From positions 10,119 to 74,118 of the forward strand of contig PPGI01000008.1 of NCBI GenBank assembly GCA_003173855.1: a stretch of DNA of 64,000 bases, given 5' to 3'. Shown here one piece after another: positions 9,959-46,398 of the stretch. The stretch's first letter is position 1. Every line of letters starts with the position of its first letter. The DNA is from Candidatus Zambryskiibacteriota bacterium. GTDB lineage: Bacteria; Patescibacteriota; Minisyncoccia; Phycocordibacterales; DATDWN01. The translations under genes and the position numbers were made by a program. The notes beneath the pieces are model-generated. The model searched no databases. It saw only the letters and a list, made by a program, of their open reading frames with translations, and was not told the origin of the DNA.

Positions 9959-10237
9959 ATGAAAGATTTAAACCGAGTTTTAATACGACCACGAGTTACA
10001 GAAAAGGCGACACTAGTCACTGAAAATTCAGTCTACACTTTTGTAATTGATCCAAAAGCTACTGTATATCAAGTCAAAAAAGCTTTCGTTGATCGATATA
10101 AATTTGTGCCAGTAAAAATCAATACAGTTACAATTCCAGCAAAAAAAGTTTTTGTTCGAGGAAAATCCGGAATGAAATCTGGTTACAAGAAAGCTTATGT
10201 TTATTTAAAGAAAGGAGACAAAATAGAAAATCTATAA
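9959..10237 (+). CDS. rplW: 50S ribosomal protein L23
   Basis: 92 aa; L23-like; position. Confidence 0.9.
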   Translation: MKDLNRVLIRPRVTEKATLVTENSVYTFVIDPKATVYQVKKAFVDRYKFVPVKINTVTIPAKKVFVRGKSGMKSGYKKAYVYLKKGDKIENL

Positions 10238-28058: not shown

Positions 28059-28068
28059 TTTGTATTTG

Positions 28069-28451
28069 TGGAGATGGTGGTATCGAAACCACGTCCATAT
28101 ATAGAATTGAAACGAATCTACAGTGCTTAGGATATTTAATTGTTTAAAACACAAAGCTTAGAACAGCCAAAATACTTTGTATTCGAGTTCCTATTTTTCG
28201 GAAGTTTCCGGAACAAGGAACTTCTATAACCTCAATTTATATCAATCAACTTCTCGTATGAGATATGAGAGAAGCGACCGTCCCTTAGGCTAAAGCGTAA
28301 GAGAAAGTATAGGCTCCGTAAGGAGAAACTACACCCTTAGACAAGTTTTTTACACTTAATCTTTCCAAACCGTTTTAGGAGAATTTGGTGCTCCGCATTG
28401 CACGTATCAATGTCGAATATATGTCAAAACCTGTCATCCCCGCTCTTTGTA
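28069..28451 (-). ncRNA. ssrA: tmRNA (ssrA), ~383 nt
   Basis: 5' GGGGAUG pairs with 3' CAUCUCC, including the G3:U70 pair that marks alanine charging. tRNA-like T-arm (GUGG-UUUCGAUA-CCAC); discriminator A; CCA not encoded. Internal tag reading frame GCC UAU ACU UUC UCU UAC GCU UUA GCC UAA (AYTFSYALA*) at 28285..28314. Adjacent to smpB. Confidence 0.75.
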
Positions 28452-31758: not shown

Positions 31759-31807
31759 GCAGTGTTCACGCAAAAGGCCGGCAACCCGCCGGCCTTTCCT
31801 ATACATG

Positions 31808-31881
31808 TCCGCCTGCTTGGACTCGAACCAAGGACCCCAGAGGTATAAGCTCTGTGCTCTAACCAACTGAGCTACAGGCGG
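31808..31881 (-). tRNA. tRNA with anticodon UAU (predicted Ile, AUA-reading)
   Basis: Canonical cloverleaf: acceptor CCGCCUG/CAGGCGG; D-arm GCUC-AGUUGGUUA-GAGC; anticodon stem CAGAG/CUCUG with loop CUUAUAC; T-arm CUUGG-UUCGAGU-CCAAG; discriminator A; CCA not encoded. Confidence 0.75.
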
Positions 31882-31977: not shown

Positions 31978-32322
31978 ATGGCTGAGAATTTACCGAAGGA
32001 TATGTCGAGAATAGTTTTGCGGATCTCGACAGAGAAGGACAATCCACAAAAGCTTCGCAATGTCGAATTTCGGATCGATCCGAAAAACGACGATGCTATT
32101 CGAATCCTTGATCGTGACTTGCACGATGTTTTCTCGGTCACAGTTCGAAAGACATGGACCAATATGCCAGAGAGGATGGTTCAAAGTTATGCGAACGAAG
32201 CGTTAATCGATGCTGTCATTCGGGCATTCTATGCTGTACTGGTTGCGGGTCCACTTACACCAGTACAAGAGAAAGCAATCCATCGTGCTGTTCCTGATCT
32301 CGTCATCACTCTACCCAAGTAG
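31978..32322 (+). CDS. Hypothetical 114-aa protein in the GC-rich islet
   Basis: TTGACA promoter and AAGGAG SD upstream; own hairpin terminator. Confidence 0.4.
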   Translation: MAENLPKDMSRIVLRISTEKDNPQKLRNVEFRIDPKNDDAIRILDRDLHDVFSVTVRKTWTNMPERMVQSYANEALIDAVIRAFYAVLVAGPLTPVQEKAIHRAVPDLVITLPK

Positions 32323-32693: not shown

Positions 32694-33026
32694 ATGACAC
32701 CAGGTGCAGCTCGTTTCTCGAAGAGCATCATGGCTATAAGCCAAAGCCTCAAGTCCGGAGTTCCGAGTGACGCTGAGCTCTCTCGGCTTCTCAGAGAAAC
32801 AGGAGCGGTGGTAAACGAGAAATCCAAAACCATTCTCCTCAATACTTTATTCGACATACGGGGACGTGAGAACCGTCTTGCGACAATCAACATTGTTGCA
32901 AGGTGCTTCAAGAGTCTAACCAAACCTGTTCCCGCTGAGCCTGAGAGAATGGCCGACATCGATTACGACGATTTCACAGAAATCGATCCGACTGCAGTGG
33001 AAGTTCCAACAGGCGAGTGGCGATAA
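32694..33026 (+). CDS. Hypothetical 110-aa acidic protein in the GC-rich islet
   Basis: AGGAGG SD; terminator hairpin at 33033..33057. Confidence 0.4.
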   Translation: MTPGAARFSKSIMAISQSLKSGVPSDAELSRLLRETGAVVNEKSKTILLNTLFDIRGRENRLATINIVARCFKSLTKPVPAEPERMADIDYDDFTEIDPTAVEVPTGEWR

Positions 33027-35243: not shown

Positions 35244-35313
35244 TTTTTGCTATAGGTCGCGAACGTTTTTGTCTTAATGTGAAAGGGCAAGTCCGTAGAC
35301 CTGCCCTCTAGAC

Positions 35314-36306
35314 TTACTTTGTTGCGTGCACCTTCGGTCGGTTGGTGAAAGATGGATCGGCATCGATCGCGTTGCCCGACGGATTGTACACCGTTGGGCA
35401 ACTGTAGTTCGTGATTTTGTTCGTGATCATCTTGTCGTTGTTGCCTTGATCGGAGATTGCCGCAACATACGAGGTGTTGTAGCAATAGTCGTTTGTGATG
35501 GTGTTGTTCACGACTTTGTTGTTCGTCTGGTCGTCTGGAGCACTGATGCAGTCAGCAGCCACATTGGACAGATACGCTCCCACATCATTGTTTTTGAGCG
35601 TGTTCTGAACAATCTGAACCCCAGATACGAGAGCGCTTCCATAACAAGCTCCTCCAACTACCAGAATTCCGCCTGAAGCGGAACCATCACCGGGAAATCC
35701 GATGTAGGAATTTCCGCTTACAGTGTTTCTCATGACGGACGCTGATGCGGCGAAACCAACTTGGATGCCGTTCTGGGCAATGTAGTTTACATGCCCCTGA
35801 CCGATGACGTTGTTGTCGCTTACCGTTACCTGGGAAGCTGGACCGTTCACCACGACCCCGCCTTTTTGGTAATTGTAAATCGTGTTTCCGGAAACTTTTC
35901 CAGTCACGGCGCTCGTGTCCGAGAAACCACGGTAGTAGATGCCCACACCATGCTGGGTACCATTCAATGGCACTTCGCCGATGTCATGAATCGAGCTCGT
36001 CAAAACGTCAACCGAGACGATTCCAGCGTCGCCGTTCACTAGCACACCGAAATAGTTCGATCCGAAGATGTTTGCCGATTTCACCGTGCCGCCGACGCCT
36101 GCTGCGTCGTAGTAGATCGCCACGTTGCAGCCGGTCGAGTCGACATTTCCCGACACCGTGCCGACAGGATTGATAAGAGCCGCGGTCATGTTGATCGAGT
36201 CTCTGAAGAAACCAGTTGGCATGCAAGTTGCCGCCTTGATCGAAACCTCCTTGATGGAAGTTCCCATGAGAACAATTGCCAGTGCGAACACAAACCTTTT
36301 CATCAC
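35314..36306 (-). CDS. Secreted right-handed parallel beta-helix (pectate-lyase-fold) protein, GC-rich (~55%)
   Basis: Signal peptide; repetitive G/N/V/T-rich ~22-aa turns typical of beta-helix; GAGGAG SD; GC far above background. Confidence 0.55.
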   Translation of the reverse strand: MMKRFVFALAIVLMGTSIKEVSIKAATCMPTGFFRDSINMTAALINPVGTVSGNVDSTGCNVAIYYDAAGVGGTVKSANIFGSNYFGVLVNGDAGIVSVDVLTSSIHDIGEVPLNGTQHGVGIYYRGFSDTSAVTGKVSGNTIYNYQKGGVVVNGPASQVTVSDNNVIGQGHVNYIAQNGIQVGFAASASVMRNTVSGNSYIGFPGDGSASGGILVVGGACYGSALVSGVQIVQNTLKNNDVGAYLSNVAADCISAPDDQTNNKVVNNTITNDYCYNTSYVAAISDQGNNDKMITNKITNYSCPTVYNPSGNAIDADPSFTNRPKVHATK

Positions 36307-36377
36307 TCACTCCTCATTCAAATAGTACGGGTTTCCACCAGGAAACTCCGTAGCTAAATTTACATGTTATTTTACTC

Positions 36378-36707
36378 TTGTCAATGTGTAGAACTTGTGT
36401 TAAAAATATGATTATGAAATGGATAAAAAATAATTGGATCAAGCTCCTAGCAGTTCTAAGTTTGGCTGGAGCAATATGGGGCAATTTCCCATATGTTTAT
36501 TATCAACTAATGAATTGGATAGTTGTCGGTGCAGCAATTGTTACAGCAATGCAAGCATCACGCAAAAATAATATTGCAGTAATGTGGTTCTTTCTTTTTG
36601 TAGCAGTTATATTTAATCCTGTTGCTCCACTTTATTTAGATCAGAATGTTTGGAGAACAGTCGATATGGTTACAGGTTTAGTTTTTCTTCTCGCTTTGTT
36701 TGTCTAA
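36378..36707 (+). CDS. Small membrane protein (3 transmembrane segments), hypothetical
   Basis: Hydrophobic ORF followed by the bidirectional terminator at 36721..36746. Confidence 0.4.
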   Translation: MSMCRTCVKNMIMKWIKNNWIKLLAVLSLAGAIWGNFPYVYYQLMNWIVVGAAIVTAMQASRKNNIAVMWFFLFVAVIFNPVAPLYLDQNVWRTVDMVTGLVFLLALFV

Positions 36708-36756
36708 TTAAATGCAAAAAATCCCGGATCTCTCCGGGATTTTTTGTTTAACTTAA

Positions 36757-38143
36757 TTAATATTGAGAACTCCACTGTGCGGTTAGATTTCCAATACCAT
36801 TGTCGGCTACAACTTTAATTGAGATTATATCTCCTGCACTAAATGCAACATTGTGTGTTACATCTGAACAAGAACTTGCTCCGCTAGTGATTGTACACGT
36901 TACAGGCTGACTTACGCCATTTTTATCAACAGTGAACACGATATTTTTACCAGAGCCGCCGACATTAGAACTCAATCTCACAAAGAAGTTCTTTATTGTT
37001 CCTGCAACTGGCATTGCTACTTGCTCTGAGCTTTCAGTTGTTGAATTACTTCCAACAAATGTGCCCATGTATGTTGTAGCATTAGCTTGAACGCTTGCAC
37101 CACTGCCTCCACCTATAAATGAGATTCCGTTAGTTCCATTTATACCTGGGTTACCTTGTATTCCTTGGATACCCTGTATACCTTGAGAACCAGTGTCACC
37201 CTTATCTCCCTTTACACCCTGAATACCTTGGATGCCCTGTATTCCTTGATCTCCTTTATCACCCTTTGGACCAATAAGTGATGTTAACCATTGAGTTACA
37301 GTGCCACCAAAACTATTATCAACAGCAACTTGGTAAGCACTTTTTCCATCAACACCAGTGTCTCCTTTGTCTCCTTTATCACCCTTATCACCTTGAATTC
37401 CTTGTATTCCTTGATCTCCTTTGTCTCCTTTTAAGCCTTGTGGACCTTGAGAACCAGTATCACCTTTATCTCCCTTTGGACCTTGTGGACCAGTATCGCC
37501 GGTATCTCCCTTCAAACCTTGTGGGCCTGGTACACCTTGAATACCTTGTTCTCCTTTTTCACCTTGTTGACCAGTTTCTCCTTGGATTCCTTGCTCACCT
37601 TGAGCACCAGTCTCTCCTTTTTCACCCTGAACTCCTTGAATACCCTGATCTCCTTTGTCACCTTTATCTCCCTTTGGACCTTGGATTCCTTGTTGACCTT
37701 GTGGACCAGCAGGACCTATTGGACCTACATCACCTTGAGCACCTATAGGACCAGCAGCTCCCGTATCTCCTTTAGGACCTTGATCTCCGGTATCACCCTT
37801 GTCTCCTTTTTCTCCATTAGTTCCGTTTGTTCCAGGATCCCCCTTTGGACCTTGTGGACCAACTGAACCTTGTATACCTTGTGGACCTTGAGCACCAGTC
37901 TCTCCTTTAGGACCCGCAGGGCCTGTGTCACCAGTATCACCCTTTGGACCGGTTGCTCCATCAGCACCATTTTGACCAGCAGGACCGATTGGACCTTGGA
38001 TTCCTTGAATTCCTTGTGGGCCAGCAGGACCTTGAATATTTCCTACATCTTGGAAGTGAGTTAAATCAGTACATACATATAAATGTCCACCAATTAAATA
38101 TCCATCACCAATATTACATGATGAAGGTAGAAGGGAGTATCAT
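36757..38143 (-). pseudogene. Collagen-like (GxY)n protein, C-terminal segment: ~110 GxY triplets, a phage tail-fibre/BclA-like SAYQVAVDNSFGGTVTQWLTSL motif, and a C-terminal globular domain. The frame is open from 38143 with no ATG; it continues the 38094..38627 ORF after a frameshift
   Basis: In-frame GxY repeats traced by eye from 38041 to ~37100. The ORF-track entry 36757..37515 merely starts at an internal TTG. Confidence 0.6.
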
Positions 38144-38627
38144 CAAATGATCCGAGAATTTTTACACTTGTTCCAGCTTCTCCTTTTTCTCCTTGTGGAC
38201 CTTGTGGACCAGCAGGGCCTTGAGCACCTGTTGCACCAGGAGCACCATCAGCACCAGCCGGACCGGTTGAGCCTGTATCTCCTTTATCTCCTTTTGAACC
38301 TTGTATTCCTTGAGCACCTATTGAACCAGCAGGACCTGTGGCACCAGTATTACCAGTGTCACCCTTGTCTCCTTTTTCTCCTTGTGGACCGATAGGACCG
38401 ATTGGACCTTGTGGGCCGATAGGACCAGGAACTCCTTGAATTCCTTGTGGACCTTGTGGACCTGCAGGACCTTGTGGACCAACTGTTGAACCGACACTAA
38501 TAAAAGTATTTCCTGAACCAGTACACTGTGAGGCAGAACTTACAACCGTCACTTTTCCGTTCGGACTTGAAACACAAAGATTAATTGTTGTAGCAGATGC
38601 ATTTGCAAGTGGAATTAATGCAAACAA
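38094..38627 (-). CDS. Collagen-like protein, N-terminal segment (signal peptide + N-domain + ~40 GxY triplets), ending prematurely after a frame change
   Basis: [12 protein letters not shown] signal-like; [16 protein letters not shown]... repeats. The ORF ends in the non-collagen tail ...[24 protein letters not shown], while the GxY frame resumes downstream in another frame. Confidence 0.6.
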
Positions 38628-38938
38628 ACTTATTCCAGCAATCGTTGTGACAACCCTATAAGAAATTTTTTCATTGAAAATCTGTTTATAAAATTAATAA
38701 GCTACTAATAAATGAAATGCATCTCAGTGCATACTACATTATAAGAGGGTAGTGTCAAACCTATCGGAAATTCAAAAAAAATTGTAGAAAATCTATTTTA
38801 TCCACACATAATCCCCAAAAAATCGAGAATTTTCGTCAAATTCAGAAAAAATTTGAAAATTTTGTGATTTGCAAAAAATTTTGGATGTTATACTGACAAA
38901 GATTATAAATTAAATAGTAAATTAAAAAATAATTTTTT

Positions 38939-41113
38939 ATGATAAAAAATTTTCTGAGAATAATGTTTTCAGTAGGATTGTTCGGATTTGCAACGGTCGC
39001 ATTTGCTGGAACTGGAATTGGAACAACAGTTACGCTTCCTTCGACAGTTACAGTAGGTGATACTGGAGTTGCAGCAAGTATTCAGTTTGTTAATACATCG
39101 ACAGCACCAGATAATGTAAATACAATTTCTATTTCAAATATTACGTTGTCTACAACAGCAGGTAACACGGGTGTTTTTTCAATCAGTGCATCAGGTAGTC
39201 AGCATGCAGGTACTTCTTGTGGAGCAGCAAGCTTTACAATTACACCAGGTGCTCCTGGAACATGGACAGTTACACCAAATACTACTCTTCAACCTGTCGG
39301 CATAACTGGAACATGTCAGATTGATTTTACAGTTAATATTCTTTCATACCCTTCTACTGACGATAACGGAGCATTTGCTGGAACACAAGCATTCCTTAAG
39401 GTAAATGGAGATGCAGTTAATACTTTTACTGGGACACCAGGAAATGCTGCAGGAACAGGACAAACAACAGTTAGCAAAGCCTCACCTTCAATTGCAACAG
39501 TTCCATCAGCTGGTGGACCGGTTGGAACAGTATTAAATGATACTGCTACACTTTCTGGAGGAGCATCTCCTACAGGAAATGTGACATTCAAACTTTTTGC
39601 TCCATCTGATGCAAGTTGCTCTGCTTCAGCACTTTACACTGACACTGATGGATCAGCACCTTATGGAACAAGTCCTGGATTTACAAGTCTTGTAGCAGGT
39701 ACATATCATTGGACAGCAGATTATGCTGGAGATGCAAACAATAATGCAACTTCAAGTCCATGTTCAGCAGAAACAGTTACAGTTACAAAACGTTCTTCCT
39801 CTGTTACAACTACAATTCACGATGTTGGACATAATGCAACAACATCTGTTGCAGTCGGAACAGGAGTTCACGATAACGCAGTTGTTTCTGGGTCTGGACC
39901 AACACCAACAGGGACAATCTCATTTAGCATTTACCCAAGCTCAAGTTGTGCAGTCGCTTCAACAAGTTCACAAACTGTTGTATTAGTAGGTGGAGTTGCA
40001 GAAACAGGAACAACAACAGTAACTTCAACAGGTCTAGCTTACAAAGCATTCTATGCGGGTGATTCAAATTACAGTTCTTCAGTAGGAGATTGCGAAACTT
40101 TGCAAGCTGTAAAATTAACTCCAAATGTTTCGACGGATGTTCATAACTCACTTCATCAAATCGTAACAACAGTTCCAGCAGGTTCAATAGTTCACGACAG
40201 TGCAACTGTAACAGGTTCTGGAGGAACTCCTACTGGAACAGTTAATTTTACAGTCTTTCCAAATGGAGTTTGTACAAATGACACAGGAAGTCCAGCAGGT
40301 AGTCACGCATTAAATGGAAGTGGTATTGCTGATGGATCAAATCCAGAAGGGCCATTATCACCTGGATCGTATTCATTCATGGCAAATTACCTTGGTGATG
40401 ATACTTATCTACCTAAAACAGGATCTTGCGAGCCTTTAACTGTTGGCAAACAAAGTCCATCAATTTCGACAACATTATCGACTACAACATCAGTAACTAC
40501 AGGAACAGCAGTTCACGATAGTGCAGCACTTTCTGGTGCAACATCTGATGCTGGTGGAACAGTAACTTATAATGTTTATTCTGGTTCAGTTTGTTCTGGC
40601 TCACCAGTATTTACGAGCGGACCTCATACAGTATCACTCGGAGTTGTTCCAAATTCTAATAATTTCACATCACTTTCTGCCGGAACATACAATTGGCAAG
40701 CTATTTATTCTGGCGACGCAAACAATAACGCTACATCAAGCCCATGTCAGACCGAAATACTAGTTGTTACAGCTCCACCAGCAGGTCAGTGGTGTTCACA
40801 CGGATATTGGAAGCAATCACAACACTTTGATAGCTGGGTAGGATACTTGCCATCACAGTTATTCTCATCAGTATTTGAAAATGCATTTCCAGGAAAAACT
40901 CTACTTCAAGTATTGCAACAAGGTGGCGGAGGATTGAACGCACTTGGTCGTGATACAGTTGGAGAGCTTCTAAACACTGCAGCAGGATTGAATACAGGAT
41001 TTACTACAAGTCAGATAATTGCAAACTTTAGTGCAGTATTCCCAGGCTCAAACAGCCAATACGATACATTGCATGCAACGTTTGTAGCTCCTGAAAACTG
41101 TCCTCTTAACTAA
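38939..41113 (+). CDS. Large secreted protein (724 aa) of ~7 tandem Ig-like/'big' domains, Thr/Ser/Gly-rich
   Basis: Signal peptide; each ~100-aa repeat ends Y-x-(A)-x-Y-x-GD-x-N-x(2-3)-S-x-C-x-(T/E)-x-(T/L)-V; unique C-terminal domain. Confidence 0.65.
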   Translation: MIKNFLRIMFSVGLFGFATVAFAGTGIGTTVTLPSTVTVGDTGVAASIQFVNTSTAPDNVNTISISNITLSTTAGNTGVFSISASGSQHAGTSCGAASFTITPGAPGTWTVTPNTTLQPVGITGTCQIDFTVNILSYPSTDDNGAFAGTQAFLKVNGDAVNTFTGTPGNAAGTGQTTVSKASPSIATVPSAGGPVGTVLNDTATLSGGASPTGNVTFKLFAPSDASCSASALYTDTDGSAPYGTSPGFTSLVAGTYHWTADYAGDANNNATSSPCSAETVTVTKRSSSVTTTIHDVGHNATTSVAVGTGVHDNAVVSGSGPTPTGTISFSIYPSSSCAVASTSSQTVVLVGGVAETGTTTVTSTGLAYKAFYAGDSNYSSSVGDCETLQAVKLTPNVSTDVHNSLHQIVTTVPAGSIVHDSATVTGSGGTPTGTVNFTVFPNGVCTNDTGSPAGSHALNGSGIADGSNPEGPLSPGSYSFMANYLGDDTYLPKTGSCEPLTVGKQSPSISTTLSTTTSVTTGTAVHDSAALSGATSDAGGTVTYNVYSGSVCSGSPVFTSGPHTVSLGVVPNSNNFTSLSAGTYNWQAIYSGDANNNATSSPCQTEILVVTAPPAGQWCSHGYWKQSQHFDSWVGYLPSQLFSSVFENAFPGKTLLQVLQQGGGGLNALGRDTVGELLNTAAGLNTGFTTSQIIANFSAVFPGSNSQYDTLHATFVAPENCPLN

Positions 41114-41264
41114 TATTTGGACCAAAAAACTTATCAGTATACCTGATAGGTTTTTTGTTTGAATAAAAAGGTCGAATTATTAATAAGTTTTCATTTTTCA
41201 CTTTGAGTTCATTGTTTTCTATTAGAATGGTCCTCGTTCGTGTTTATAAGTTAATTAAATATAA

Positions 41265-41972
41265 ATGCAAAAATTTTTATCAAAATTAGCAATAACAGGG
41301 TTAATATTGGGCTCGATGGTTGGAATTGCTCAAGCAGCAACAAGTCCGGCTACAGCAAATGAATGTAAAAACGGCGGATGGAAAACTTTCACTGCTCCTG
41401 CATTCAAAAATCAAGGACAATGTGTAAGTTATGTTGAACACTTAAAGAAAAATCCACCACAAACTAACAATCTAACATGTTTTTCAGGTCCAACAGATCT
41501 TTCAATTTACGGAGGAACATGTTCGATAACTAATGGTGTGGCAACATTAAACAATTCTGATAGCAATCCAAATGGCGATTATTCGGGAGTTTATTATCCA
41601 ACAAATGCGTCTTCTGGACAGTTATTGAGTAGTATTACATCACTTGGATACACCTATTCAGGAACAGTCTCCCCAACGCCAGGAGATTTAAGCCTCAACA
41701 TTCCAGTTGATACAGATATCAATGGAACAACAGACGCTTATGCCTTTGTCGATGCATTCTATTGTCCGGGAACAGCTGGAACAGTGGATGTAATCCACGA
41801 TCCTGTCTGTGGAATCTGGGTAAATAGCATTGAATATCCAAATTGGGCAGCACTAATTGCAGCTAATCCAACATGGAAGGTCTCATCTGACGTGCCATTT
41901 ATCGTTGCAGAGAGAACGCCAAGTGAACCATCTGCAGTTTGGACAGTATCAAACGTTCAATTAGGACAATAG
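41265..41972 (+). CDS. Secreted hypothetical protein (235 aa, Cys-containing)
   Basis: Signal peptide AQA|A; no known motif. Confidence 0.45.
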   Translation: MQKFLSKLAITGLILGSMVGIAQAATSPATANECKNGGWKTFTAPAFKNQGQCVSYVEHLKKNPPQTNNLTCFSGPTDLSIYGGTCSITNGVATLNNSDSNPNGDYSGVYYPTNASSGQLLSSITSLGYTYSGTVSPTPGDLSLNIPVDTDINGTTDAYAFVDAFYCPGTAGTVDVIHDPVCGIWVNSIEYPNWAALIAANPTWKVSSDVPFIVAERTPSEPSAVWTVSNVQLGQ

Positions 41973-41990
41973 TTTAAACTAACAAATAAA

Positions 41991-42020
41991 AATAAAAATC
42001 CGCTTCAGCGGATTTTTATT
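41991..42020. terminator. Bidirectional terminator (aaaatccgcttcagcggatttt)
   Basis: Perfect hairpin with flanking A and T runs. Confidence 0.65.
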
Positions 42021-43455
42021 TTTTCACAACATGAAATCCAGGAGAAGGCTTAAAAACAGCCATTAGAACTCCCACGCCTTCCATAAAACTAAAGGCCGGT
42101 AAGAAAATAATTTGTGCCAAGTACCATTTTATTCTAGTAAAAATATTTGTAACACCATATTCATCTAGATTTGCTTTAAGTCCAATCAGATAAAGTGTAC
42201 CAAATGTTGCAAATGAAAAATTAGCTAAAAATCTAATTACAGGATTAATTTCTACTCCATAAAATAGATGCACCACTGTATACATAATTGCAAATGGAGC
42301 AACTGTCCATAAAAGGGTATTAATTCCCAAAGAAATGCGCCACTTAATATCTACTGGAGCGTGAATAGCTACTTTGGCTAAACCTTGATACCATCGACGT
42401 CTTTGTTTAACGAAATCTTCAACAGATTGTGTTGATTGTTCTTCAAGATAACCTTCTACCCATCGACATCGATGACCTCTTTCCATCGCCATAAGCGCCC
42501 AAAAAGCATCTTCAGTAATAGAACCTTTTGGGCCAAGATCAAACCCGATAGCTTTTTCAATATCATTTCGTACGACAATATATGAACCATGTAACCCGAA
42601 AATTGTAATTCCAATTCTGTGTTGAAGATGAAAACGTGCGAAATCATCACCAGTTCGGACATTGTCAGCAAGAGTTAAAAATGGATGTTTTTGCCATTTT
42701 CTGTGATAAAGTATTGCTCCTTGACCAATTCTTAATTCACCGGATTTTTCTTCTTCTGAAATCATAGCTGCTATTCCTTTTATTCCGGATGGTGTTGGTT
42801 GAGTTTCTTCATCTAAGTGCACGATCCAAGCATCATCAGGTAGTGTTGAATTTAAAGTTGCATAGTGAAGAGCTCGAGCTTTGTACAATGTATTGTTTGA
42901 AGTTCTGTAATCAGATGGGACAGTAATGTATCGGATATCATAATTTGGTGGTAAAAATTTTATGTTTTTTGTATCAGTAACAACTTCGATTACATATTTA
43001 AAAAGAGGAAGTTTAGTCATTTCCTTTTGACAACGTCTAACTGTTTCTTCTAGAGCTTCTATATTAGTACCTCTAGATACTATTCAAAAGGAAACCAGAT
43101 TATTAATTGGTTTAACACTATCTAGTTTTTCTGGATGGCGATACCGAAGCATTCCCATTAATCCAAAAGTTCCTGGAATGACTGCAGTAATCCAAACTAT
43201 GCTTAACCAGGCCCAAATTTTTTCGAAAATTGTTATAGCTTCTCGACTATTTGGCCAAATCCACATTTGAAGAAGATATAGGGCAATTGTTATTGAAATC
43301 ATCCAAAAAACCACTAATACCCGGTGTCCTGTAAGTAGACTAAAAGCCCAGTCTCTAACCGGTTCCTTTTTATGAACAGTTTTTGGTTTAACTCTAGGAT
43401 TTATAATCTCAGCCATTTTCCTAGGCGAGACAATTCGTATTGCTATTTCTGCCAT
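42016..43455 (-). pseudogene. Family-2 glycosyltransferase (processive type, QxxRW motif) interrupted by a single in-frame TGA at 43084..43086
   Basis: ORF 43084..43455 encodes 2 transmembrane helices. The 63 nt after its TGA are in frame and read IVSRGTNIEALEETV (start of the GT-A domain), continuing into ORF 42016..43020 (HLDEET, EDAFW, QRRRW, C-terminal transmembrane segments). Confidence 0.6.
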
Positions 43456-43585
43456 ATAAAAAACTCCCTATAGGAGCTCGATTCACACTAGCACATAATT
43501 ATTATTTGTCAATAGATAAATATGCTTAATTGATTTTTCAGAGGTTTAGATGTATATATAGGTAAATAATTTAAAAAATAAAAAA

Positions 43586-44851
43586 ATGATAAATAAAAAG
43601 ATCGGAATAGCAGTTGTTTTAGGGATTTTATTATTAGTTGGTGCAGGTCAAGTCTTAGCAAAACAAAAGGATGACACGATTCCCGGACAATATATTGTTG
43701 TTCTGAAGGATTCAGTAGCCGATTCAGATGTTGACTCTGTTGTTTCTGATTTGGTCTCAAAACACAATGCAGGGGAGTTATATTCATATCATAAAGCTGT
43801 TAAAGGATTTACGGCAACAATTTCTGATTCTGAAGTAGACAAAATTAAAAAAGATCCGCGAGTGGATTTCGTTAGCGAAGACAGAGTTGTTTCAATTGAT
43901 AAAGTTAATGTCGAAAAAATTGGACAAGTAACTGCCCAATCGGAAACTATTCCAACAGGAGTTTCTCGAGTGGCAGCAACAAATACAGTTAACAAAGGAC
44001 AAGGAGTAAATATTGCTGTAATCGATACCGGAATTTATTCAGCACACCCAGATCTTCAAGGTGCAATTCTAAATAGTGGAACAAGCTGTATTAGAAGAAC
44101 TTCATCTCAAGATGATAATGGTCATGGAACACACGTTTCTGGAACAATAGCAGCACGAAATAACGGCATTGGTGTTGTTGGAGTCGCTCCAAGTGCAAAA
44201 CTTGTGCCTGTAAAAGTTCTTGATCGAAATGGGTCTGGAACATGGTCATCAGTTATTTGCGGAATTGATTGGGTAACAAATCACGCAGCTCAATACAATA
44301 TTAAAGTTGCAAACATGAGTTTGGGTGGAGGTGGTACATCGGATAACAATTGTGGAAATACAAACAACGATGCTCTTCACAAAGCAATCTGCCGTTCACG
44401 AGATGCAGGTGTGACATACGTTGTAGCTGCAGGAAATTCGGCAGCTGATGCTGCAAATTCCGTACCTAGCGCTTATGATGATGCGGTGATTACAGTTTCG
44501 GCACTAGCTGATTCTGATGGTAATGCGGGAGGAGTAGGAGCAGCAACTTCATACGGAAATGATGATACATTTGCTTCGTTTTCTAACTTTGGATCAGTTG
44601 TTGATCTTGGTGCGCCAGGAGTTGATATTCTTTCAACCTGGAAAGGTGGTGGATACGCAATTCTTTCTGGAACTTCAATGGCTACGCCACATGTTACTGG
44701 AGCAGCAGCACTTTATCTTGATGCTCACCCAGGATCTACTTGGACACAAGTTCGAGATGGTTTAATGACTATTGGTGAGGAGAAAGGTTTTGGGCACACA
44801 GATCCTTCAGGTTTGCATCCAGAGATAGTTCTAAATGTAAATAGTTTGTAA
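43586..44851 (+). CDS. Secreted subtilisin-like serine protease (S8) with an I9-like propeptide
   Basis: Catalytic triad motifs AVIDTG, HGTHVSG, GTSMATPHV; signal peptide. Confidence 0.9.
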   Translation: MINKKIGIAVVLGILLLVGAGQVLAKQKDDTIPGQYIVVLKDSVADSDVDSVVSDLVSKHNAGELYSYHKAVKGFTATISDSEVDKIKKDPRVDFVSEDRVVSIDKVNVEKIGQVTAQSETIPTGVSRVAATNTVNKGQGVNIAVIDTGIYSAHPDLQGAILNSGTSCIRRTSSQDDNGHGTHVSGTIAARNNGIGVVGVAPSAKLVPVKVLDRNGSGTWSSVICGIDWVTNHAAQYNIKVANMSLGGGGTSDNNCGNTNNDALHKAICRSRDAGVTYVVAAGNSAADAANSVPSAYDDAVITVSALADSDGNAGGVGAATSYGNDDTFASFSNFGSVVDLGAPGVDILSTWKGGGYAILSGTSMATPHVTGAAALYLDAHPGSTWTQVRDGLMTIGEEKGFGHTDPSGLHPEIVLNVNSL

Positions 44852-44858
44852 AATAAAA

Positions 44859-44885
44859 ACTCCCGCTTTGGCGGGAGTTTTTATT
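44859..44885. terminator. Bidirectional terminator (aaactcccgctttggcgggagttt)
   Basis: Perfect hairpin. Confidence 0.65.
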
Positions 44886-44893
44886 TAGGAAAT

Positions 44894-45823
44894 TTACTGT
44901 GACTGGGTCACAAACGAATTTTGACTTGATGTCGCAGTGTTTCCACTAAAGTCAGTTGATCCAACTACGAAATAATATGTGGTCGACGTTGATAATCCTG
45001 AAAGCAACACTGAATGGTTCGTTACTCCGCCTACAATTGAAGTCATTGTTGCAGTCGAGAAATTTATTGGAGTTGTTGAACTAAACCAAACAGAACTTGT
45101 TGAGTTTTCGTCTGTATTCCATTTAATTGTTGAAGTTGTGACTGTAGTTGAAGCGGAAATGTTTGAAATTATAGGAGCAGTTGTATCAGAGGTTGGAGGT
45201 GTAGTTGTTCCGAACATTGGATGCTTGTTCAGTATTCCTGGAGGAAGTGTTTGACATGGTGGCACAATAGGCATTTCGTTACCTTCATGTTTTAACCATC
45301 CAGGTGCGATTAAGTGTCCAGGAGGAATTTTAGCGCAAAGTCTTTTATGTTCACCATGGTCCTCATCTCTTTCAGTGCTAGTTGCCTCAATATCCAAACC
45401 AAGATTATCTTTTTCTTCGTTCAATTTTCTAAGTGTTTGTGGGCCAACAAAGCCAAGAGCTTCGATGCCGTGCTTCTTCTGGAACTTTTTAACTGCTTCT
45501 GATGTCATTTGTCCAAAAAATCCTGTGATTAGACCTTGAGGATAAACAGTTGGATCTGCTGCAAGAATCGCTTGTAGTGCTTTCACGTCATCACCGCTCA
45601 TTCCTTGGCGCAAACTCCTAATTAGAGACAAAGTTCCAGATATGTTTTGAACAGTAGTTTGAACCTGTTGCTGGGCTGAATGCAGGGCTTCGATCTGCGC
45701 TTGCAGAGTCTGGATTTGAGTTAATAATGCTTGGATTTGAGTACTAGTGCTTGTATCGGCAATAGCCAGTGTTGGTCCAACAACCAACGAAAAAACTACG
45801 AATATTCTTGTTATTGTTTTCAT
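44894..45823 (-). CDS. Secreted protein: coiled-coil, peptidoglycan-binding (PG_binding_1-like) domain, and a C-terminal FN3-like Thr/Ser-rich domain
   Basis: Signal peptide; DDVKALQAILAADPTVYPQGLITGFFGQMTSEAVKKFQ. Confidence 0.55.
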   Translation of the reverse strand: MKTITRIFVVFSLVVGPTLAIADTSTSTQIQALLTQIQTLQAQIEALHSAQQQVQTTVQNISGTLSLIRSLRQGMSGDDVKALQAILAADPTVYPQGLITGFFGQMTSEAVKKFQKKHGIEALGFVGPQTLRKLNEEKDNLGLDIEATSTERDEDHGEHKRLCAKIPPGHLIAPGWLKHEGNEMPIVPPCQTLPPGILNKHPMFGTTTPPTSDTTAPIISNISASTTVTTSTIKWNTDENSTSSVWFSSTTPINFSTATMTSIVGGVTNHSVLLSGLSTSTTYYFVVGSTDFSGNTATSSQNSFVTQSQ

Positions 45824-45933
45824 TTAAAATTGAATTATTAATAATCCTACTTACTAAGACGGTAAATAACCGATCTTAATTACATTTTAGCAATAATAAA
45901 CAAAAAAGCCCGGGAGTTTTCCCGAGCTTTTCA

Positions 45934-46398
45934 CTATCGTATTACACAGAGGGGAGTAGGAGATCCGAGAGCTGTTTCTTGTGATTTAGGAGCACAAACC
46001 ATTATCTGATTACTTGTAGTTGAGGAGATTGTATAACCTGTGTTTGCAGTTGTTCCGCCATCAGGGTCCATTGGAATTCCAGCGGCAATATATGTTGTTG
46101 CAAGGCAGCTGAGGTCAGAAAATGTAGGACCAACAGTTGTTCCGATCGTTGTACTTGCTGAAGAAGCTTTAAAATATACACCATTGCATGTCCAAATCCC
46201 TTTATTATCAGCAATATTCTGGCCAATAGCATTTAGAATTGTATTAATATTGCTTAATCTCTGCGTATTACGAGCTTGAGCAAATTGTCTTGAAGGATTG
46301 ATGGCAATGATAACTATTGTTGCCAAGATTGCGATGATTCCAATAACGACAAGGATTTCGATCAATGTAAAACCACTATTTTGGTTTACTTTTTTCAT
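45934..46398 (-). CDS. Type IV pilin (major pilin candidate)
   Basis: Prepilin N-terminus MKKVNQNSG|FTLIEILVVIGIIAILA with Glu5; C-terminal Cys pair. Confidence 0.85.
   Translation of the reverse strand: MKKVNQNSGFTLIEILVVIGIIAILATIVIIAINPSRQFAQARNTQRLSNINTILNAIGQNIADNKGIWTCNGVYFKASSASTTIGTTVGPTFSDLSCLATTYIAAGIPMDPDGGTTANTGYTISSTTSNQIMVCAPKSQETALGSPTPLCVIR

Follow-up and report, generated by a model that had tools for sequence, protein, structure and literature searches.

Characterised beta-helix enzymes carry their substrate grooves and catalytic residues on one face of the helix, and a beta-helix protein is also predicted for a gene encoded on the minus strand (35314..36303) of a 64,000-nucleotide stretch of DNA, hereafter termed the window, which comprises positions 10,119 to 74,118 of contig PPGI01000008.1 (assembly GCA_003173855.1) of Candidatus Zambryskiibacteriota bacterium. 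Our analysis describes this gene as horizontally transferred and its product as a disulfide-bonded, secreted beta-helix protein with a putative action on polysaccharides, a reading to which we assign, taken as a whole, a probability of about 0.6. The most general likeness is found to the proteins described by PF13229 and the PbH1 repeat, with which the window protein shares three-stranded coils, an Asn ladder (N164, N193, N234 and N239 are nearly invariant) and x-x-G-[IV] turns, whereas its own family is distinguished by an N-terminal cap with strong conservation (C27...C59), by a Q/H-K-N ladder and by the tail FTNRPKVHAxK at the C-terminus, none of which is covered by an existing family model.

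Catalytic motifs known from described enzyme classes were not found. The NTD, GHG and RIK motifs of the GH28 polygalacturonases are missing, and the single DD, located at residue 257, is not conserved. The A-modules of alginate C5-epimerases and lyases (AlgE4, 2pyg; 8ja4) and AlgG are only 13-14% identical to the window protein, in which neither the catalytic YG(F/I)DPH(D/E) of AlgE4 and AlgG nor a DPH at any other place is found, and there are no alginate genes nearby. Among the polysaccharide lyases, comprising the pectate lyases of families PL1, PL3 and PL9, the latter with Pel9A, and the chondroitinase B and alginate lyases of family PL6, of which Pel9A and the PL6 enzymes use a Lys base with metal assistance, no family matches the window protein; of the candidate residues for a lyase-type mechanism, K147 and the acidic positions 110 and 240 are conserved in its family, and R125 varies in the wider family. 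Of the catalytic constellations of pectate lyases or glycosidases, for which a first-pass annotation made by a model from the sequence alone had proposed a search, those of GH28 are absent, and there is no match to a lyase or hydrolase model of Pfam. Phage tailspikes and capsule depolymerases have in common with the window protein the fold and the proposed action on surface glycans to reach a host, but the window protein is small, of predicted monomer size, equipped with a signal peptide and devoid of a virion-attachment domain and of viral relatives. In contrast to PfbA and the passengers of pertactin and Vag8, it contains neither an LPxTG motif nor an autotransporter barrel, and its conservation across phyla is far higher than is typical of adhesins. 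Single-gene transfer into Patescibacteria has already been described in general terms in at least one account (PMC12455944). On present evidence, fold and transfer are both ordinary, whereas the family has no name, no specific model, no solved structure and no trace in the literature searched.

The beta-helix protein and its gene

The gene and its local signals are arranged as follows.

35275..36350, no strand: GC-elevated patch of about 1.08 kb, from GC profiles in 40-nt steps and over 200 nt
36357..36384, minus strand: promoter-like TTGACA, 16 nt, TAAATT (10/12 matches) in AT-rich, host-like intergenic DNA
36329..36349, minus strand: small hairpin of the 5' leader, GTTTCC, loop TGGT, GGAAAC, with flanks GG/CC, read from the sequence
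36310..36315, minus strand: Shine-Dalgarno sequence GAGGAG, 6 nt upstream of the ATG, read from the sequence
35314..36303, minus strand: coding sequence of the probably secreted beta-helix protein, 329 amino acids from the ATG at 36303 to the TAA stop codon at 35316-35314
36232..36303, minus strand: part coding for the predicted signal peptide, residues 1-24 (MKRFVFALAIVLMGTSIKEVSIKA), with n-h-c layout
35284..35307, minus strand: GC-rich hairpin AGGGCAGGTC, loop TACG, GACTTGCCCT, followed by TTTC, 7 nt past the stop codon

The open reading frame is uninterrupted between 35314 and 36306 on the minus strand, and its mechanical start, a GTG at 36306, is located one codon before the ATG at 36303-36301. 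Since the aligned homologues all begin at the equivalent MKR, this ATG is most likely the start of a 329-residue product, so that of the 330-residue frame reported by the first-pass annotation the uninterrupted extent was retained and the start moved in by one codon. The ribosome-binding site that had been described as strong is found at 36315-36310. Promoter-like sites in the region of the gene are no more numerous than in shuffled sequence, which makes the one listed above weak evidence. The 3' hairpin resembles a terminator, but its T-tract is weak and it failed the T-run rule of a terminator scan. Together, the gene, the leader hairpin and the 3' hairpin make up the GC-elevated patch, which borders on AT-rich, host-like DNA on each side.

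The N-terminus displays the n-h-c layout of a Sec signal peptide, with MKR followed by a hydrophobic core (FVFALAIVLMG) and a terminal ...IKA|AT, where signal peptidase I is predicted to cut after IKA to leave a mature N-terminus A-T-C27. With a Kyte-Doolittle mean of 1.83, the 19-mer that starts here at residue 4 exceeds all others of the protein in hydrophobicity; another hydrophobic stretch, which starts at residue 213 and has a mean of 1.66, is located inside the helix. In all 38 aligned homologues the layout is present with variable sequence, and the conserved block begins at C27. Assignment of Cys27 as the modified residue of a lipoprotein was rejected, as the position preceding it varies among homologues between T, V, A, I, D, P and L, at odds with a lipobox. 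The six cysteines of the protein constitute three pairs that are gained and lost together across homologues. The pair C27-C59 is found in 38 of the 38 sequences, C220-C252 is complete in 12, represented by one residue in 1 and absent in 25, and C274-C302 is complete in 29, represented by one residue in 1 and absent in 8. This co-variation provides good evidence that the pairs form disulfides and hence that the protein is extracytoplasmic. With its signal layout and three co-varying cysteine pairs, the protein shows the features of a Sec-dependent, disulfide-bonded protein, and it is very probably secreted. Neither an LPxTG motif, a C-terminal transmembrane segment, an autotransporter barrel, nor a peptidoglycan-binding or S-layer-homology domain was found in its 329 residues, which end 14 residues beyond the last modelled strand (residues 313-315). 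Since it contains no LPxTG motif, no further strongly hydrophobic segment and no further domain, the protein should be released rather than anchored. Its mature part consists of 12.5% G, 12.2% V, 11.2% N, 9.2% S, 8.3% A and 7.3% T. Both the signal peptide and the richness in G, N, V and T proposed from the initial inspection are borne out by these data, with S and A to be added to the latter.

The model obtained with AlphaFold2 from an alignment of 38 sequences is all-beta with three strands per coil (mean predicted local distance difference test score, pLDDT, 88.9; predicted template-modelling score, pTM, 0.87), and a right-handed parallel beta-helix of the pectin-lyase-like superfamily is, by this prediction, almost certainly the correct fold. 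The beta-helix named in the first-pass annotation is thereby confirmed at the level of structure prediction, whereas the coils, which in the strand pattern of the model measure 24-40 residues and typically about 30, are longer than the turns of about 22 residues that it had described. Searches with Foldseek against the PDB and BFVD returned generic beta-helix matches with weak E-values, the template-modelling scores (TM-scores) in BFVD not exceeding 0.55, and in terms of structure the protein matches lyases, hydrolases, epimerases, tailspikes, adhesins and NosD equally well. On the level of sequence, the PF13229 Beta_helix model matches the window protein with 17.4 bits (E 0.0036), below its gathering threshold of 25.9 bits, and it is matched by 18 of the 38 close homologues at E<=0.1, the best of them at 6.3e-9.

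The family and the origin of the gene

The family to which the protein belongs is large, widespread and uncharacterised, consists of stand-alone genes that occur for the most part in GC-rich bacteria of soil, and has no specific Pfam model. A word-indexed search retrieved 1578 homologues with E-values down to 1e-160, nearly all of about 330 residues and every named one labelled hypothetical; the best 120 are 55-77% identical to the window protein and are distributed across phyla. When 1.84 billion cluster representatives were compared exhaustively to a profile, the number of matching clusters amounted to 256 at E<=1e-30, to 1479 at E<=1e-10 and to 2976 at E<=1e-3. In a set containing one genome per GTDB species, 377 loci with a relative were identified, the best 80 of which all belong to metagenome-assembled genomes of uncultured, mostly soil, bacteria labelled as Acidobacteriota, Chloroflexota (many of them Ktedonobacterales), Dormibacterota, Actinomycetota, Alpha-, Gamma- and Deltaproteobacteria and, in about ten cases, Patescibacteria. 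No relatives were found in 2.9 million IMG/VR contigs, 50,697 INPHARED phage records, PHROGs or plasmid records, there was no conserved operon partner in ten loci with Pfam-labelled neighbours, and our literature search on the sequence motifs of the family yielded nothing relevant.

Three independent lines, composition, synteny and phylogeny, agree that the gene was acquired by horizontal transfer, which highly probably took place fairly recently and from a GC-rich bacterium. With respect to composition, the reading frame has a GC content of 51.6-51.7% compared to 38.1% of the window, and thus exceeds it by 13 points; the values of about 55% and about 20 points above average that were initially stated are both too high, as 55-56% is reached in some 200-nt windows only. 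The GC content at third codon positions (GC3) amounts to 0.622 compared to 0.269±0.078 across 69 open reading frames of the window, while first and second positions (GC1 0.49, GC2 0.43) are ordinary, and the anomaly is thus entirely located at synonymous sites. Back-translation of the protein with the codon usage of the window leads to an expected 39.0% GC against 51.7% observed (z=+16), and the per-codon likelihood under this usage (-1.43 compared to -1.00±0.12) is the lowest of the 69 genes. The compositional difference on which the foreign origin had first been proposed has thus persisted under codon-usage analysis. Among 83 loci of the family, the GC content of the gene tracks that of its flanks (slope 0.61, r 0.88). 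In GC-rich hosts it lies 3-9 points below the flanks, as the amino-acid composition would predict; in five hosts of the candidate phyla radiation (CPR; L009, L010, L011, L074 and L004) it lies 5-11 points above them, and a few CPR copies (L052, L055 and L083) are fully ameliorated. At the DNA level, the nearest homologues resemble the gene in its coding region only (74% for L007), and since they have no flanking sequence in common with it, the limits of the transferred segment can be drawn no more closely than by the GC patch. A search for flanking direct or inverted repeats of a mobile element returned only short, chance-like matches.

The recipient is identified by RecG, which is encoded immediately downstream and is 72-80% identical to proteins named Minisyncoccia, Paceibacterota, Zambryskibacteria and Parcubacteria; since these are CPR names, the host is a CPR bacterium. 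While the gene order downstream of recG is conserved among relatives, a member of the beta-helix family is absent, within the fetched flanks, from all 80 of the 80 recG-syntenic metagenomic loci, whose RecG is at most 76% identical. In four of the closest relatives (L088, L091, L093 and L094), the homologue of the pilin gene at 45934-46398 directly adjoins recG, which defines 35,244-45,933 of the window as a variable insertion zone. The sequences that group with the window protein in a neighbour-joining tree are two of metagenomic origin, L006 (74% amino-acid identity, 62.8% GC, GC3 0.89, flanks of 61% GC) and L007 (77% identity, 54.9% GC, GC3 0.70), the next relative being a Steroidobacteraceae copy. 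The tree is dominated by Acidobacteriota, Chloroflexota, Actinomycetota and Proteobacteria, and CPR copies occupy at least five separate places among non-CPR sequences. The simplest reading of this polyphyly is a repeated transfer from GC-rich soil bacteria into CPR. A homologue search had been suggested as a means to identify the donor; it has led to GC-rich nearest homologues and stops short of naming a donor lineage. The locus represents a clean and well-bounded transfer of a single gene from GC-rich bacteria into a reduced CPR genome.

Several observations concern individual loci of the family or the surroundings of recG. In a Steroidobacteraceae metagenome-assembled genome (L002, 1-902), the family member is found at a contig end, about 560 nt from a transposase of the insertion-sequence type (rve/DDE_Tnp_IS240), which hints at how the gene may move in some hosts. 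On a 192-kb contig (L170, 8398-9678), the gene just upstream of the family member encodes a second, longer protein of 426 residues with a weak Beta_helix match, possibly a tandem paralogue. The closest homologue (P0002) is located on a 1152-nt Logan contig (L007) with the same 17 nt, CCGCCGATCCGTTACGT, at 1-17 and 1136-1152, which points to a tandem repeat that was collapsed or to a circular artefact of the assembly. Among related genomes, the DNA upstream of recG is a hot spot of rearrangement, with the pilin operon next to recG in four relatives, a homologue of the S8 protease in L092 and homologues of the window genes at 54920-57693 in L089. On the other side, where relatives differ in the length of the spacer that separates recG from the next conserved gene, two small open reading frames on the plus strand of the window (31978-32322 and 32694-33026), located between a tRNA-Ile gene and recG, have GC3 values of 0.45 and 0.50 and z-values in the codon test of +4.8 and +6.6. 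Neither has a match in Pfam or PHROG, and together they look like a second small foreign islet, separated from the beta-helix gene by the native recG.

Conserved residues and proposed function

Comparison to L006 and L007 gives a ratio of nonsynonymous to synonymous substitution rates (dN/dS) of about 0.05, which is approximate due to saturation of dS, and indicates that the gene is under strong purifying selection. Conservation of individual residues was assessed in a diverse alignment of 46 sequences that are 31-54% identical to the window protein. In this alignment, the conserved polar residues are C27, C59, T30, D35, T40, Q117, Y145, Q146, K147, Q177 and N178, the last six of which show the deepest conservation and recur at an equivalent point of consecutive coils. 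An acidic residue occupies position 110 in 78% of the sequences, and position 240 is invariably D, E or Q. His106, His118 and an acidic residue (Glu or Asp) at 110 are conserved within the close subfamily; in the wider family H118 is found in 65% and H106 in 61%. In the model, Q117-H118, Q146-K147 and Q177-N178 each directly precede the first strand of successive coils (120-125, 148-153 and 178-183), so that the ladder formed by Q117, Q146 and Q177 and its partners should stack on one face of the helix.

The activity that we propose as the most likely is that of a secreted protein that binds and cleaves or modifies a polysaccharide outside the cell. Its groove would follow one sheet of the helix and would be lined by the ladder of Gln117, Gln146 and Gln177 together with His118, Lys147, Asn178 and the acidic residues at 110 and 240. 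A lyase-type mechanism with a lysine base and acidic residues or metal ligands would be most compatible with the conserved residues. The donor would have had a GC content of about 55% or more, and in this Paceibacteria-like CPR genome the gene landed at the recG-proximal edge of a variable island of surface genes beside the type IV pilin operon, where it is kept under strong purifying selection. An action on glycans is favoured by the architecture of relatives, where the conserved N-terminal half (profile positions of about 18-213) is fused to other domains, among them DUF642/CBM_4_9-like modules (twice), a ConA-like Laminin_G_3 lectin, RTX repeats, cadherin and immunoglobulin (Ig) domains, since carbohydrate-binding partners are typical of glycan-active enzymes. 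We nevertheless regard the assignment as a secreted glycan-acting enzyme as tentative, with odds somewhat short of even. If the family were a new class of carbohydrate-active enzymes, it would be relevant for the turnover of soil polysaccharides and might bear on how epibiotic CPR cells deal with the surfaces of their hosts. A more far-reaching proposal describes a new secreted family of glycan-degrading beta-helices that has repeatedly moved from GC-rich soil bacteria into CPR epibionts and has settled there in variable islands of surface genes beside pilus genes, where it would clear the capsule or exopolysaccharide of the host for the access of pili. We consider this proposal speculative and rather improbable; if true, such a CPR enzyme would be a cellular analogue of the phage tailspike depolymerases.

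A number of points weigh against our interpretation. Enzyme classes, adhesins and NosD cannot be told apart by the predicted fold, and the geometry of the groove was derived from the strand pattern of the model. Searches of PDB sequences with both the single protein and the family profile returned only noise (E>=0.7), NCBIfam a sub-threshold generic repeat, PHROG and PADLOC nothing and Pfam only the generic Beta_helix, and none of the catalytic motifs of characterised beta-helix enzyme families occurs in the protein. In the loci examined, family members are not accompanied by a conserved gene for a transporter or for use of a product. Concerning the transfer, the tree was calculated without bootstrap, and since another CPR genome (L004) also carries a family member near pilus genes, an earlier arrival of the family in CPR with later replacement retains some plausibility. 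The transfer would also be deceptive if the GC-rich gene was introduced into the contig as an assembly chimera or contamination, an explanation for which the abrupt, gene-sized switch in composition could be invoked. However, such an artefact would require two precise junctions 1.08 kb apart that preserve an intact gene, a well-spaced Shine-Dalgarno sequence and host-like, AT-rich promoter DNA, and the same combination of a GC-rich family member with low-GC CPR flanks on a single contig recurs in independent assemblies (L009, L010, L011, L074 and L004). Moreover, the GC3 of 0.62 is below that of the nearest GC-rich homologues (0.70 and 0.89), as would fit a partial amelioration in the host, and we thus consider a chimera very improbable.

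Among the alternatives to an enzyme, a non-catalytic surface factor that binds glycans or proteins for the attachment of an epibiont, in analogy to PfbA or pertactin, would be in line with the position of the gene in an island of collagen-like, Ig-like, pilin and peptidoglycan-binding surface genes, with the distance of 1.6-4 kb between CPR family members and type IV pilin genes (L004, L010 and L066) or their position beside sortase and SpaA, and with the absence of a recognised catalytic motif. The protein offers no anchor, however, be it an LPxTG motif, a C-terminal transmembrane segment, a barrel or a peptidoglycan-binding or S-layer domain. Host-specific adhesins do not resemble it in its conservation, as it is 55-77% identical, with a dN/dS of about 0.05, among Acidobacteriota, Chloroflexota and Proteobacteria that are free-living, and the invariant ladder of stacked polar residues with Lys and His resembles an active or binding groove. 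We regard this alternative as a serious but rather unlikely rival. A periplasmic or otherwise extracytoplasmic accessory protein for a metal or small molecule, similar to NosD, could account for the conservation of His106, His118 and Glu/Asp110 in the close subfamily and for the matches to PF05048, which are weak in 2 of 38 family members and reach 5e-8 in one distant multidomain relative. This role appears very unlikely since the window protein itself has no match to PF05048, the two histidines are only 61-65% conserved in the wider family, and in none of the loci examined is the gene adjoined by nosZ, nosF, nosY, nosL or an ABC partner. Even less credible is the remnant of a prophage tailspike or capsule depolymerase, the tailspike fold being among those named in the first-pass annotation; this reading is contradicted by the absence of any relative in the viral collections searched (IMG/VR, phage records and PHROGs), by the low TM-scores in BFVD, by the lack of phage genes nearby and by the presence of a signal peptide in place of an N-terminal particle-binding domain. 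A transferred, secreted beta-helix protein with putative action on polysaccharides thus remains our preferred description.

The surrounding surface-gene region

The zone that separates recG from the pilin operon contains the following features.

35244..45933, no strand: variable region with surface-protein genes that separates, over about 10.7 kb, recG from the type IV pilin operon, from synteny and Pfam
36378-36707, divergent: DUF6804 membrane-protein gene, separating the beta-helix gene from the collagen and Ig genes
36757-37515 and 38094-38627, minus strand: collagen-repeat genes, from Pfam
38939-41113: Big_3_5 Ig-repeat gene of 724 amino acids, from Pfam

Besides the beta-helix gene, the DUF6804 gene, the two collagen-repeat genes and Big_3_5, the region encodes a GT2, a Peptidase_S8, a PG_binding_1 and other proteins. 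The beta-helix gene is its recG-proximal and its only compositionally foreign member, as the others have native GC3. This also holds for the collagen-like and Ig-repeat neighbours (GC3 0.15-0.23), whose raised GC is a consequence of their amino-acid composition. The collagen-like and Ig-repeat surface genes that had been placed next to the beta-helix gene are indeed found nearby, past the intervening DUF6804 gene. The coding sequence for collagen repeats between 36757 and 38627 on the minus strand is split between different frames (36757-37515, 37512-37661, 37743-37970 and 38094-38627) and may represent one long collagen-like gene that is broken by frameshifts, which could have been caused by pseudogenisation, phase variation or errors in the assembly of repeats.

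A proximity to surface genes is also found in other CPR genomes. The recurring neighbours in four CPR loci (L004, L010, L066 and L168) are type IV pilins, PilB/PilC, or sortase with SpaA_2, a pattern that did not show up in the non-CPR genomes scanned. The distance of the family member to pilB, which encodes a pilus ATPase of the T2SSE family, is about 1.6 kb in L004/L014, and that to the type IV pilin (N_methyl) gene about 3.6 kb in a Saccharibacteria genome (L010) and about 2 kb in L066; in a Parcubacteria lineage, the neighbours are a sortase and SpaA-type surface proteins. In the window, 9.6 kb separate the beta-helix gene from the pilin gene, to which it would be adjacent once the variable island is removed. 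Altogether, 4 of 12 CPR loci are located within 10 kb of type IV pilins compared to none of about 70 loci scanned in non-CPR genomes; on a metagenome contig that carries no label (L171), an N_methyl gene is found 4.8 kb from the family member. The only recurrent CPR-specific neighbours are pilin and surface genes, together with a weak and short match of the window gene at 41265-41972 in L004 and L052. The proximity to pilins provides a lead that fits a role at the surface and in the interaction with a host, and a role of the beta-helix protein in host-cell contact is only suggested by its location in a surface island.

Two RNA genes are located on the minus strand on the far side of recG. The tRNA-Ile gene at 31807-31881 has the anticodon TAT (UAU), which is unusual since in most bacteria the AUA codon is decoded by a CAU tRNA that carries a lysidine modification. 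A full-length gene for the transfer-messenger RNA (tmRNA) was identified at 28066-28441 with a score of 106.7 bits.

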